Shown: positions 47,027 to 55,546 of the stretch, piece after piece
How positions within the stretch are numbered: the stretch's first letter is position 1
How the letters are laid out: each line of letters starts with the position of its first letter
Assembly (NCBI GenBank): GCA_964016885.1
Contig: OZ024745.1
Coordinates: 84,754,001 to 84,818,000 of the forward strand
Direction of reading: 5' to 3'
DNA: 64,000 bases
Source of the DNA: Eledone cirrhosa
Taxonomy: Eukaryota
Translations under genes and position numbers: made by a program
The notes under the pieces: generated by a model
Databases searched by the model: none
What the model was told of the DNA's origin: nothing
Seen by the model: the letters and a program-made list of their open reading frames with translations, nothing else

Positions 47027-47052
47027 TATATATATATATATATATATATATA
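47027..47052. repeat. (TA)n microsatellite at the satellite edge
   Basis: Pure TA run read directly. Confidence 0.95.
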
Positions 47053-47344
47053 AAAACAAATAACGAAACGAAATTAAACTTCGTTTCGTTTGTAACTCAC
47101 TTTTGTATGACTGACGCTTAAACAATTAAGTTAAAAATGTACATCCACATATGTATACTGAAATACTAGTATGCATATGAATACAGACACGTGTACATAT
47201 GTAGATGTACCGAGTTTTTCACTGGTCACTTTACTGTGAGTGTCCAGCTATTCTGTATGTAAACACACAGACAAACCGGTTTTTAGAGTCATACTGGTTT
47301 TTGAGGAAACACCTTTCCTCTATTCTCCAGAAAGCCAGACAAGG

Positions 47345-47389
47345 AATATTGGACTAGTTTCGATGTTGTTACATCTCATCAGCAATATT
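47345..47389 (-). ncRNA. Type I hammerhead ribozyme (family A, inverted copy)
   Basis: Exact reverse complement of the hammerhead at 47763-47807. Confidence 0.93.
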
Positions 47390-47762
47390 TACCTATCTTC
47401 CGGCCTTTCTAGAGAATCGTAAAAGCACATATCGTTATATGCTTTTTCTATGAAAATTAGTAGTGGGCAGACCAATTTGCATAGAGCGTGAGTACGTACC
47501 GGTTCAACGGAGACGATAAAAACAAATAACGAAACGAAATTAAATTTCATTTTAACTTAATTGTTTAAGCGTCAGTCATACAAAAGTGAGTTACAAACGA
47601 AACGAAATTTAATTTCGTTTCGTTATTTGTTTTTATCGTCTCCGTTGAACCGGTACGTACTCACGCTCTATACAAATTGGTCTGCCCACTACTAATTTTC
47701 ATAGAAAAAGCATATAACGATATGTGCTTTTACGATTCTCTAGAAAGGCCGGAAGATAGGTA

Positions 47763-47807
47763 AATATTGCTGATGAGATGTAACAACATCGAAACTAGTC
47801 CAATATT
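47763..47807 (+). ncRNA. Type I hammerhead ribozyme (family A)
   Basis: AATATTG-CTGATGA-GATGT(AACA)ACATC-GAAA-CTAG-TC-CAATATT: 7-bp stem I, complete core, 5-bp stem II, palindromic stem III; predicted GUC cleavage after 47800. Stem I extends further (agaaaggccgg/ctggctttct). Confidence 0.95.
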
Positions 47808-48228
47808 CCTTGTCTGGCTTTCTGGAGAATAGAGGAAAGGTGTTTCCTCAAAAACCAGTATGACTCTAAAAACCGGTTTGTCTGTGTGTTTACATACAGA
47901 ATAGCTGGACACTCACAGTAAAGTGACCAGTGAAAAACTCGGTACATCTACATATGTACACGTGTGTGTATTCATATGCATACTAGTATTTCAGTATACA
48001 TATGTGGATGTACATTTTTAACTTAATTGTTTAAGCGTCAGTCATACAAAAGTGAGTTACAAACGAAACGAAATTTAATTTCGTTTCGTTATTTGTTTTT
48101 ATCGTCTCCGTTGAACCGGTACGTACTCACGCTCTATGCAAATTGGTCTGCCCACTACTAATTTTCATAGAAAAAGCATATAACGATATGTGCTTTTACG
48201 ATTCTCTAGAAAGGCCGGAAGATAGGTA

Positions 48229-48273
48229 AATATTGCTGATGAGATGTAACAACATCGAAACTAGTCCAATATT
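48229..48273 (+). ncRNA. Type I hammerhead ribozyme (family A, second tandem copy)
   Basis: Identical to 47763-47807, 466 bp downstream; predicted cleavage after 48266. Confidence 0.95.
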
Positions 48274-48495
48274 CCTTGTCTGGCTTTCTGGAGAATAGAG
48301 GAAAGGTGTTTCCTCAAAAACCAGTATGACTCTAAAAACCGGTTTGTCTGTGTGTTTACATACAGAATAGCTGGACACTCACAGTAAAGTGACCAGTGAA
48401 AAACTCGGTACATCTACATATGTACACGTGTGTGTATTCATATGCATACTAGTATTTCAGTATACATATGTGGATGTACATTTTAAACTTAATTG

Positions 48496-48526
48496 TATAT
48501 ATATATATATATATATATATAAATAT
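48496..48526. repeat. (TA)n microsatellite
   Basis: TA run separating family A from family B. Confidence 0.95.
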
Positions 48527-48677
48527 AAGAGTGGGAAATGAAATTTCGTTTCATTTTTTCCGTTTATCTATTTCGGTGCACCCGGCCGATTAACCCACTC
48601 GATATGCAAATTGGGCTTCTCAGCTGTTAATATGCATAAGGTAAGTATATACGTTCAGCAATCTGGCAGGAAGGTAT

Positions 48678-48720
48678 ACGTTGCTGACGATAGCTAATAA
48701 GCTTGAAACTAGTATAGCGT
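48678..48720 (+). ncRNA. Type I hammerhead ribozyme (family B)
   Basis: ACGTTG-CTGACGA-TAGCT(AATA)AGCTT-GAAA-CTAG-TA-TAGCGT; predicted GUA cleavage after 48714; U.U pair at the base of stem II. Stem I extends via gttcagca..ctggcagga..agg / cctttgtcagtgttgaac. Confidence 0.88.
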
Positions 48721-49097
48721 TCCTTTGTCAGTGTTGAACAAACGAGCAACGATGGTTGCTGGACACTACGGCTTAATACGGGATGTTTGTTTACAAACAC
48801 ACTGATCATTATAATAAATGTTCGGTGACTCCATACGTACATATATATATGTGTGCATGTATGTATATATATATACATACTACTGTACGTCTGTATACAT
48901 ATATGTATGTACGTGTACATACTTATATTTAAGTAACAGCCGTACCAAGAGTGGGAAATGAAATTTCGTTTCATTTTTTCCGTTTATCGTTTTCGGTGCA
49001 CCCGGCCGATTATCCCACTCCATATGCAAATTGGGCTTCTCAGCTGTTAATATACATAAGGTAAGTATATACGTTCAACAATCTGGCAGGAAGGTAT

Positions 49098-52427: not shown

Positions 52428-52508
52428 AAAAAAATCAATAATAATGAGTTCAAATCTCAGGCGATCATTTACAATGAAATAGCTCGAAGAAAGAGTATTT
52501 CTGAGCCG

Positions 52509-52980
52509 TGTAATATAGGTTAATATAAATCAATATATTTGATAAACACAAATATCCTCATATTTCTTTTTGTATTGTAAATGACCAAGTTAGCTAGATA
52601 GAAATATACTAATAATAATATTACAGTTTGCCTATCATAAATCAACAAAAACAAATTGTATTGGCAATGGCCGTAGTGCTTGGACAAATTTAAATTTCAA
52701 AATCAAACCTGTTCCGTAGACATATTTGGATTTTCAGGTTTAAACCTGTCTACGGAACAGGTTTGATTTTGAAATTTAAATTTGTCCAAGCACTACGGCC
52801 ATTGCCAATACAAATTGTTTTTGTTGATTTATGATGTATTATCTTAAGTCATGATAGGCAAACTGTAATATTATTATTAGTATATTTCTATCTAGCTAAC
52901 TTGGTCATTTACAATACAAACATAAATATGAGGATATTTGTGTTTATCAAATATATTGATTTATATTAACCTATATTACA
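52509..52980. repeat. Long inverted repeat (foldback): arms 52509-52722 and 52747-52980, 24-bp spacer
   Basis: tgtaatataggttaat...gttccgtagaca is mirrored by tgtctacggaac...cctatattaca; the right arm has ~20 bp extra near 52835-52853. Confidence 0.92.
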
Positions 52981-53096
52981 TATATATATATAGATAGATA
53001 GATAGATATAAATATATAACCAAGGAAATGTGGTAAGGAACCAGGTGGACCATAACGCACCAAAGTACTCAATACTTAGGCTAGTAGAGTGGGTAA

Positions 53097-53224
53097 TAGG
53101 AACGAGTAGGACGCCGACGGCTGAGCTCAAGCCGTTTGGACGGCTAATTCTGGACTAAAAAATTAGTCCAGAATTAGCCGTCGAAACGGCTTGGGCTCAG
53201 CCGTAAGCATCCTACTCGTTCCTG
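53097..53224. repeat. GC-rich 128-bp imperfect hairpin, ~62-bp stem, AAAA loop at 53159-53162
   Basis: taggaacgagtaggacgccgacggctgagctcaagccgtttggacggctaattctggactaa pairs with ttagtccagaattagccgtcgaaacggcttgggctcagccgtaagcatcctactcgttcctg. Confidence 0.92.
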
Positions 53225-53298
53225 TATACATACATATATATATATATATATATATATATATATATATATATATATATATATATATATATATATATATA
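53225..53298. repeat. (TA)n microsatellite
   Basis: Read directly. Confidence 0.95.
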
Positions 53299-53795
53299 CA
53301 TCATAAAACATGTCTATAGAATCACAAGATAAAATATATACTATTTCCTCTCCCAATTAGGATAATTAACTATATAAAAATCGAATAGACCAGGCTATAA
53401 GAATGAGGCTTCTATGAAGGAATCTCCGACAAATAACCGAAACTAGCGCTTCGCATCGGCCGTAGCGGAATATTTATCGAATATTTCAACAGCGTAATCG
53501 TCCAGATATAGTCAACTAAACAGAATTAGGTGTAAAATAAACTAGGAGAAAATAGAATACATTTAAATACCTCTACCATGGTTTCGTCCGTGTTTTGAGT
53601 TTTCCAATAATTATGTAATAATTATATAAACTCGAGCGCTGTATTGTGCTGTGCTTTCTAGCAAAAATGCCACCAGTTGTAAGCAACTACCACGCCCCTT
53701 CCAACCTGACCGCGACTACGTCACGATTTTTAGCCATTTTGAAATGAATTCTTGGCGCGATCGCTTTGGAAAATTTAGTGTCTAGATAAGAGCGA

Positions 53796-53883
53796 GCTTC
53801 CTGATGAATCCGGCGCTCGAGTTTATATAATTATTACATAATTATTGGAAAACTCAAAACACGGACGAAACCATGGTAGAGGT
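53796..53883 (+). ncRNA. Type I hammerhead ribozyme (family C) with a long stem II
   Basis: GCTTC-CTGATGA-ATCCG...GAGTTT..ATAATTAT/ATAATTAT..AAACTC...CGGAC-GAAA-CCATGG-TA-GAGGT; palindromic stem III CCATGG; predicted GUA cleavage after 53878; A.C mismatch at the base of stem II. Confidence 0.8.
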
Positions 53884-54411
53884 ATTTAAATGTATTCTAT
53901 TTTCTCCTAGTTTATTTTACACCTAATTCTGTTTAGTTGACTATATCTGGGCGATTACGCTGTTGAAATATTCGATAAATATTCCGCTACGGCCGATGCG
54001 AAGCGCTAGCCTGGTCTATTCGATTTTTTATATAGTTAATTATGCTAATTCGGAGAGGAAATAGTATATATTTTATCTTGTGATTCTATAGACATGTTTT
54101 ATGATATATAGCTCTGATTGTTTAATTTATTAATTTTTCATTGAGCCACAAAGTGACCAGTTGCAAAACATGTATATGTATATGTATGTATATATATATA
54201 TATGTAAACTTTTATATATAATAATCTCTCCCATTAGGTTGAGATACAAATGTGGCTGTATTGTGCTGTGCTTTCTAGCAAAAATGCCACCAGTCGTAAG
54301 CAACTACCACACCCTTCCAACCTGACCGCGACTACGTCACGATTTTTAGCCATTTTGAAATGAATTCTTGGCATGATCGCTTTGAACAATTTAGTGTCTA
54401 GATAAGAGCGA

Positions 54412-54499
54412 GCTTCCTGATGAATCCGGCGCTCGAGTTTATATAATTATTACATAATTATTGGAAAACTCAAAACACGGACAAAACCATGGTAGAGGT
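54412..54499 (+). ncRNA. Hammerhead ribozyme (family C, second copy) with a core mutation
   Basis: Same as 53796-53883 except GAAA reads AAAA at 54483-54486 (G12 to A). Confidence 0.7.
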
Positions 54500-54879
54500 A
54501 TTTAAATGTATTCTATTTTCTCCTAGTTTATTTTACACCTAATTCTGTTTAGTTGACTATATCTGGGCGATTATGCTGTTGAAATATTCGATAAATATTC
54601 CGCTACGGCCGATGCGAAGTGCTAGTTTCGGTTATTTGTCGGATATTCCTTCATAGAAGCCTCATTCTTATAGCCTGGTCTATTCGATTTTTTATATAGT
54701 TAATTATGCTGATTGGGAGAGGAAATAGTATATATTTTATCTTGTGATGCTGTAGACATGTTTTATGATATATAGCTCTGATTGTTTAATTGTTTAATTT
54801 ATTAATTTTTCATTGAGCCACAAAGTGACCAGTTACAAAACACGTATATGTATATGTATGTATATATATATGTAAACTT

Positions 54880-55546
54880 TTATATATAAATATACATATA
54901 TATATATATATATATACATATATATATATATATATATATATATATATATATATATATATATATATATACATATATATATATACGTATATATATACATATA
55001 TATATATATATATATATATATATATATATATATATATATATGTATATATATATAAATGTATATATATATATATATGTATATATATGTATATATATGTATA
55101 TATATGTATATATATATATATATGTATATATATGTATATATATATATATGTAATGTATATATATATATGTATATATATATATATGTATATATATATATAT
55201 ATATATATATACATATATATATATATATATATGTATATATATATATATATATGTATATATATATGTATATGTATATGTATATATATACATATATATATAT
55301 ATATATATATGTATATATATATATATATATATATATACATATGTATATATATATACATATGTATATACATATATATATATGTATATATATATATATATAT
55401 ATATATATGTATATATATATACATATGTATATACATATATATATATGTATATATATATATATATATATATATACATATATACATATGTATATACATATGT
55501 ATATATATATATATATATATATATATATATATATACATATATATAT
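54880..55546. repeat. Interrupted (TA)n microsatellite
   Basis: Read directly. Confidence 0.97.

Follow-up and report, generated by a model that had tools for sequence, protein, structure and literature searches.

Introduction

Metazoan retrozymes of the kind without long terminal repeats (non-LTR retrozymes) consist of tandem repeats that do not code for protein, each unit being a few hundred bp long and containing one type I hammerhead ribozyme. They have a low GC content, thousands of copies and a weak palindromic stem III, and they co-occur with Penelope-like elements (PLEs) (PMC7229834; 10.64898/2026.07.22.740005). Three tandem units named A, B and C, which are the subject of this report, resemble retrozymes in all these respects. 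They are located in a stretch of 64,000 nucleotides from Eledone cirrhosa (assembly GCA_964016885.1, contig OZ024745.1, positions 84,754,001 to 84,818,000 of the forward strand), and this whole stretch is referred to as the window. In both B and the axolotl ribozyme HHR_Amex2, stem II has a U.U mismatch at its base (PMC7229834; 10.64898/2026.07.22.740005). In contrast to the described retrozymes, the expression and circular RNAs of A, B and C are putative. Moreover, 24 of 57 retrozyme families from Xenopus have a match to a transposable element (10.64898/2026.07.22.740005; PMC7229834), whereas no parental pseudo-LTR (pLTR) was found for A, B or C in a comparison with 70 GIY-YIG places of the genome.

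Endonuclease-positive (EN+) PLEs of the Neptune and Poseidon clades are also similar to A, B and C in that they form partial tandems with an inverted 5'-truncated copy and a tail at one end, insert into AT-rich targets, and have a minimal hammerhead upstream of two start sites (PMC11167929, PMC8557442, PMC3846280, PMC4209133). Unlike these PLEs, A, B and C have no open reading frame (ORF) for a reverse transcriptase (RT) or GIY-YIG endonuclease, and their tails measure 60-110 nt instead of 30-40 nt. Their hammerhead is positioned 215-280 nt upstream of the first (S1) of two fixed 3' ends, S1 and S2, and their arrays reach up to 31 units. The non-autonomous Chlamys elements (such as MRC1) and Naiad share with A, B and C a non-autonomous PLE-type nature and head-to-tail copies, but they are without hammerheads and have 3' ends in common with their partners (PMC8557442). 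They are nearer to unit S, the satellite repeat of the window, than to A, B and C. Naiads favour (TA)n (PMC8557442). A tail at one end only has been described qualitatively for autonomous PLEs (PMC8557442, PMC3846280). The route by which PLEs arrive at tandem, inverted and tailed insertions and the enzyme that moves animal retrozymes are both posed as open questions (PMC8557442, 10.64898/2026.07.22.740005).

In the accessible excerpts of the retrozyme literature (PMC7229834; 10.64898/2026.07.22.740005) we found no head-to-head insertions, no two fixed 3' ends and no (TA)n targeting, and the words 'inverted' and 'microsatellite' occur 0 times in PMC7229834. Likewise, a counted rule of one S1 plus one S2 end, or its occurrence in retrozymes, was not found in the excerpts of the literature searched, subscription papers being outside its scope. 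An earlier reading of the window, hereafter the original prediction, had considered that the families might be undescribed. The class to which they belong is already known (PMC7229834, 10.64898/2026.07.22.740005), while the end rule was not found in the excerpts of these sources; the strict rule of one tail per insertion is the useful new part.

Results

Hammerhead-bearing units in the window

The three TA-bounded, non-coding tandem units of the original prediction (466, 420 and ~620-660 bp) were recovered in the sequence. Unit A is 466 bp long (47550-48496, 2.0 copies, 99%), B is 420-422 bp (48528-49345), and C is ~664 bp (53638-54889) with an internal deletion in its first copy. Every A, B and C block is bordered by TA tracts. 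No real ORF was detected upon inspection of the ORFs of the window units, and an ORF with RT plus GIY-YIG, as in an autonomous PLE, is absent from them. Seven PLE proteins gave no tblastn match in the window (E<0.01), in line with the prediction that it contains no PLE ORF. The families had been presented as three distinct ones, which holds for C; A and B are homologous over their full length (alignment score 342 vs 155+-8 for shuffled sequences), and C has no relation to either in the same pairwise comparison, hence there are two lineages. The A and C blocks are head-to-head inverted insertions with arms that stop at different fixed sites:

47027..47052: (TA)13 target tract
47050..47552, minus strand: inverted arm of family A; its 3' end lies at S2, the site with a tail (unit position 87)
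47352..47382, minus strand: core A, intact; predicted cleavage after 47352
47550..48496, plus strand: two units of family A in tandem; their 3' end lies at S1, the site without a tail (unit position ~14)
47563..47636, plus strand: tail of A (~73 nt, from S1 to S2), in which a hairpin of 13 bp is predicted
47770..47800, plus strand: core A, intact; stem I of 7 bp, stem II of 5 bp, palindromic ACUAGU stem III, GUC; predicted cleavage after 47800
48236..48266, plus strand: core A, intact; predicted cleavage after 48266
48496..48527: (TA)n tract separating A from B
48528..49345, plus strand: one arm of family B with about two units; ends at S1; homologue of A
48684..48714, plus strand: core B, intact; GUA, stem II with a U.U mismatch at its base; predicted cleavage after 48714
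49104..49134, plus strand: B copy with CUGACUA, core mutation G8U, predicted inactive
53295..53645, minus strand: family C inverted arm ending at S1; contains a hammerhead 3' half
53585, minus strand: half motif (3' half of a hammerhead) in the C inverted arm
53638..54889, plus strand: about two units of family C; the end is at S2, with a tail of ~110 nt
53801..53878, plus strand: core C, intact; GUA, stem II long, stem III palindromic (ACCAUGGU); predicted cleavage after 53878
54417..54494, plus strand: C copy with AAAA replacing GAAA, core mutation G12A, predicted inactive
54845..55547: long (TA)n tract adjoining the C 3' end

A strict type I scan of this region yielded five intact hammerheads, compared with 0 matches in 200 dinucleotide shuffles of 47051-54888. 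Two further motifs are core-mutated and one is a half. Each tandem unit has a type I hammerhead, as retrozymes do, with two window copies being core-mutated. The original count of seven full motifs and a half is therefore retained for the half and the five intact motifs, but not for the mutated ones at 49104 and 54417; the cleavage positions that had been named (47800, 48714 and 53878) coincide with predicted sites of intact cores. The Rfam search suggested at the time gave a mixed outcome, as three A motifs matched Hammerhead_HH9 below the threshold (38.9 bits vs 52, E 3.9e-7) and nothing in the window reached the gathering score; B and C were not among the 150 matches listed of 154. Rfam matches to microRNAs in the window were rejected as artefacts of TA repeats and hairpins. 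The monomer RNAs of A and B are predicted to fold strongly (z -10.2 and -6.7 relative to shuffles).

A ATGCAAAT word upstream of the hammerhead is retained in A and B (47685-47695 and 48589-48596); it corresponds to the octamer motif and is a candidate for a promoter role. Another type I hammerhead-like motif, with a 7-bp stem I, a long stem II and a palindromic ACGAUCGU stem III, is present at 63324-63449 on the minus strand and has relatives at the loci L174, L182, L189 and L257.

Head-to-head insertions nearly always combine one S1 end with one S2 end

The original prediction did not include the architecture of the insertions, which was added by our analysis of A, B and C loci. Two fixed 3' ends occur in each family, namely S1 and, about 73 (A), 60 (B) or 110 (C) nt beyond it, S2. 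TA-rich sequence follows 138 of 169 S1/S2 ends versus 4 of 28 other ends. Many insertions are head-to-head. Altogether 73 such pairs were found. Of these, 22 with an end that was truncated or lay at another position were excluded, and among the 51 classed pairs 49 combined S1 with S2 (p 6e-13 against free choice). When A loci were chosen by position, all 12 classed pairs (of 13) were S1+S2, 10 being classed by script and 2 by eye due to a substitution at the unit border. The A and C blocks of the window conform to this rule as well. A, B and C thus form tandem and inverted insertions with the tail at one end, as anticipated for non-autonomous PLE derivatives. Most head-to-head junctions link unrelated unit positions and few are symmetric, with an overlap of 1-10 nt in 31 of 50 junctions. 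Target-site duplications are unreadable inside TA tracts.

The two arms of an insertion share a haplotype

The divergence of A units was 0.46% within arms, 0.57% between the arms of an insertion and 1.94% between insertions, and private variants were common to both arms of an insertion. The corresponding values were 3.1, 3.4 and 3.8% for the older family B, where the effect is small, and 2.4, 2.0 and 3.8% for C, where it is clear. One insertion of 9.2 kb has 20 units over two arms with zero substitutions. A copy that spans the cleavage site cannot derive from a linear monomer cut at both ends, so that the templates would have been circles or uncut multimers. Two other potential indications of circularity were discarded. 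Arrays in which two types of B unit alternate were rejected as evidence for dimer circles, as the inverted arm is unlike either alternating type, and a unit-length self-closing contig seen in two runs was left unused because a tandem array gives the same.

Copies are dispersed and their ribozymes conserved

Within the 3.0-Gb genome, A, B and C are each scattered across many contigs as dispersed, non-coding tandem copies of a few hundred bp, like retrozymes. Exact motifs numbered 7,812 for A, 24,157 for B and B-like units and 301 for C (0 in reversed controls); the candidate numbers of a first look (321, 2060, 2992 and 2744) are not copy numbers. Cores were intact in 107 of 116 anchor matches for A (6 of which are not the element), 92 of 104 for B and 47 of 51 for C. 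The common core variants were located at N7, the cleavage base (H17) or loop II, or consisted of the compensatory exchange of an A-U pair for U-A in stem II; both changes of this pair co-occurred in two of four runs and neither was present in a third. Across seven rows of the A/B clade, 6 of 14 stem pairs were altered on both sides, with the limit that these rows are mutually related and the shuffle control is consequently generous. Hence, both the stem covariation among genomic copies and the dispersed copies on which the original prediction had made itself dependent are present.

When hammerheads of the A/B clade with a different stem II were sought, a further 1,688 matches were obtained (16 in the control). 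They are dominated by a B-related family D, which is non-coding and not a parent PLE. At least six more hammerhead-bearing families reside among TA tracts, several of them with a very long stem II (L168 6510-7419; L169 8089; L172 33 and 6206-6325; L147 25; L186 1042). One A insertion (L288 6912-7460) is bordered by (CAT)n rather than (TA)n.

Neptune-type PLEs of the same genome have the same ends and targets

A GIY-YIG search of the genome yielded 10,596 candidates, and in the sampled ORFs an RT was joined to a C-terminal GIY-YIG domain, mostly with a cysteine linker. Three Neptune-type families, N1-N3, combine RT and C-terminal GIY-YIG with a CxxxxCxxC linker, and such a linker is given for Neptune and Nematis (PMC8557442). 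N1-N3 end in TA, and in 12 of 13 pairs one arm was tailed and the other tail-less; this genome therefore contains EN+ PLEs whose ends and targets are those of A, B and C. Hammerheads with a palindromic stem III were detected in N1 and N2, the N2 hammerhead having a U.U mismatch like that of B and the N1 hammerhead a U3-A8 core variant (L168 6103; L167, L172, L176, L178). This core variant is the one described for the Cercyon PLEs of Schistosoma. At one locus (L273) an N1 arm that ends at its own S2 is joined head-to-head to a B arm that ends at S1. Except for this join and another one (L105), the PLE-protein matches near 135 A/B/C loci represent separate copies of N1-N3 or other PLEs. Outside TA-rich stretches, the terminal repeats of the sampled PLEs gave no alignment with A, B or C. 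A pair of B copies separated by 6.5 kb was rejected as the flanks of a PLE, as they are separate insertions with no PLE protein match.

The satellite and other TA-associated elements of the window

The remainder of the window contains the following features:

1..47029, plus strand: array of the 582-bp unit S; 49.2 kb when its continuation to the left of the window is included
52430..52980: P1, dispersed short inverted repeat flanked by TA; one arm exceeds the other in length; no hammerhead
53010..53223: P2, dispersed short inverted repeat flanked by TA; one arm exceeds the other by ~85 nt; no hammerhead
55549-59500, minus strand: long interspersed element (LINE) with an intact 1045-aa frame for AP-endonuclease (APE) and RT, ending in 10-bp repeats and (TA)n
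60624-60960, plus strand: short 3' copy of this APE+RT LINE in the opposite orientation

Unit S is dispersed elsewhere too. At 24 of 26 inspected loci it ends at unit position 413-417, mostly against TA, and the array itself ends at the same S position as the dispersed copies; inversions are rare in S. There is no hammerhead core in unit S, where CUGAUGA is followed by GAGA with no NUH in register and is not kept in a relative, and neither a hammerhead nor another Rfam ribozyme was found in it. The 49-kb satellite is thus an expanded array of a dispersed TA-inserting unit without a hammerhead. Since S is dispersed and TA-ending like its array, and P1 and P2 are likewise TA-flanked, the region is a pile of TA-seeking elements. 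The satellite edge at which the original prediction had placed the cluster is not a special site: several TA-seeking elements are nested here and the satellite unit is one of them.

Within the S array (1-47029), higher-order spacings of about 1162, 2909 and 4349 bp were observed, and TA is present at both flanks. Furthermore, 49520-51970 is a repeated non-coding stretch with internal duplications of 156 bp and ~490 bp, parts of which recur at other loci, and the minus strand at 62050-62647 contains a LINE-like 3' end fragment of another element between TA tracts.

Discussion

Our analysis indicates that A, B and C are likely to be non-autonomous retrozymes, probably copied as circular RNA in trans by a Neptune-type PLE enzyme with one priming event per nicked strand. 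That they are non-autonomous, target (TA)n and are mobilised in trans had been proposed in the original prediction and is supported by our analysis; through the end rule and the N1-N3 parallels, the link to PLEs has become stronger than that prediction could make it. We are highly confident of the part of this reading in which PLE-driven priming takes place at two sites, S1 and S2. Given such priming, a circular template is the option towards which we lean.

The proposed sequence of events would start with transcription of a tandem array, the hammerheads of which would cut as dimers via their palindromic stem III, upon which the monomers would be ligated. An RT/GIY-YIG dimer may then bind the tail region and nick both (TA)n strands, with one target strand priming at S1 and the opposite strand at S2 on one RNA. 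Each cDNA would be extended over a variable distance, for many rounds if the template is circular, and the two cDNAs might be joined by microhomology to give the head-to-head junction. Certain arrays would later expand in place. A PLE protein has been reported to nick and extend both strands in vitro and to start at two internal sites, between which the tail is enclosed, and it is predicted to form a dimer (PMC11167929). The long identical arms would be explained most simply by a circle made by dimeric hammerheads.

Several observations weigh against this reading, in whole or in part. With regard to the end rule, the first sample of pairs was picked by best score, two pairs, both in C, had the same site at both ends, two of the N3 pairs are mutual duplicates, and some of the pairs counted for N1-N3 are short 3' fragments. 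The second end was neither S1 nor S2 at L118 2217-3560, where B is head-to-head with a B-like variant, and at L105 1028-2493, where the B 5' end is joined to the end of the Neptune N2 ORF, possibly through a template switch. The L273 chimera is a single case that could reflect two successive insertions. An autonomous PLE with a terminal repeat like A, B or C was not found in a DNA comparison covering 70 of the 150 GIY-YIG places listed from the 10,596 candidates. As for the ribozyme and the circle, the C monomer folds no better than shuffles (z -1.25), and 5' ends at the cleavage site are not clearly enriched (3 of 64 arms for A, 0 of 65 for B and 0 of 71 for C), the three A arms stemming from two events, one of which is within a palindrome. 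In published work, 8 of 9 tested dimers remained uncleaved (10.64898/2026.07.22.740005), and hammerhead cleavage was dispensable for insertion in vitro (PMC11167929). Finally, a 31-unit array and the alternating B arrays point to turnover after insertion, and long arrays by themselves are therefore no proof of rolling-circle copying.

The foremost alternative retains PLE priming at two sites but on a linear, uncleaved read-through transcript of a tandem array, so that the hammerhead acts elsewhere or is merely inherited. This would fit the dispensability of cleavage, with unprocessed RNA as the main in vitro substrate (PMC11167929), the poor cleavage by minimal hammerheads (PMC4209133), the lack of a clear 5'-end signal at the cleavage site and the availability of long homogeneous arrays as possible sources. 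We nevertheless regard it as rather unlikely, as a transcript of >6 kb with 13 uncut identical hammerheads would be required for the 20 identical units of the two arms, and as the core is retained and the stems covary between subfamilies, so that the ribozyme is under selection at some step.

It is improbable that the units are mere pLTRs that remained when autonomous PLEs were truncated at the 5' end and that subsequently underwent local amplification. They do share their ends and targets with PLE families, short truncated PLE ends are common next to A/B/C loci, and most solo minimal hammerheads have been read as truncated PLEs (PMC4209133), but the young dispersed insertions run from unit to unit without an ORF, and both the separateness of nearly all PLE copies at the 135 loci and the restriction of any similarity with the sampled PLE terminal repeats to TA-rich stretches speak against such an origin.

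Palindromic junctions led to the proposal of fold-back self-priming on an antisense template for rotifer PLEs (PMC3846280). We consider it very improbable that this process, or satellite dynamics at the DNA level, generated the inversions described here. A few junctions are indeed symmetric and arrays do turn over in place, but at most junctions unrelated unit positions meet, and neither the combination of one S1 with one S2 end nor the Neptune-B chimera is predicted in this way.

Lastly, the units might be partners, comparable to short interspersed elements, of an AP-endonuclease LINE such as that at 55549-59500, which adjoins them with its intact 1045-aa frame and likewise ends in (TA)n. In LINEs, 5' inversions arise by twin priming. 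However, such a partnership is hardly credible, since no unit has sequence similarity or a shared 3' end with the adjoining LINE, the two arms are copies of one sequence that begin at fixed points, and two fixed 3' ends with a tail are the signature of PLEs (PMC11167929, PMC8557442).

The reading of A, B and C as retrozymes moved by a PLE enzyme bears on a connection between retrozymes and PLEs that has so far been based on co-occurrence and pLTR similarity. In E. cirrhosa, young protein-free elements bear the PLE end signature as a near-strict rule, and candidate enzymes are encoded in the same genome. With this footprint, the start sites can be predicted exactly and short substrates become available for an existing in vitro assay, which makes the mechanism testable. 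Unit S, in turn, provides one example of a dispersed TA-inserting unit that has grown into a 49-kb satellite. We tentatively suggest, with rather less than even confidence, that PLE integration is an obligatorily asymmetric double priming in which a tail-bound dimer makes one cDNA per side and strand, and that on ribozyme-made circles both cDNAs may roll for many rounds to give kilobase palindromic arrays that seed satellites. If this is true, the Neptune-B chimera would document directly that a retrozyme had travelled with a PLE complex.

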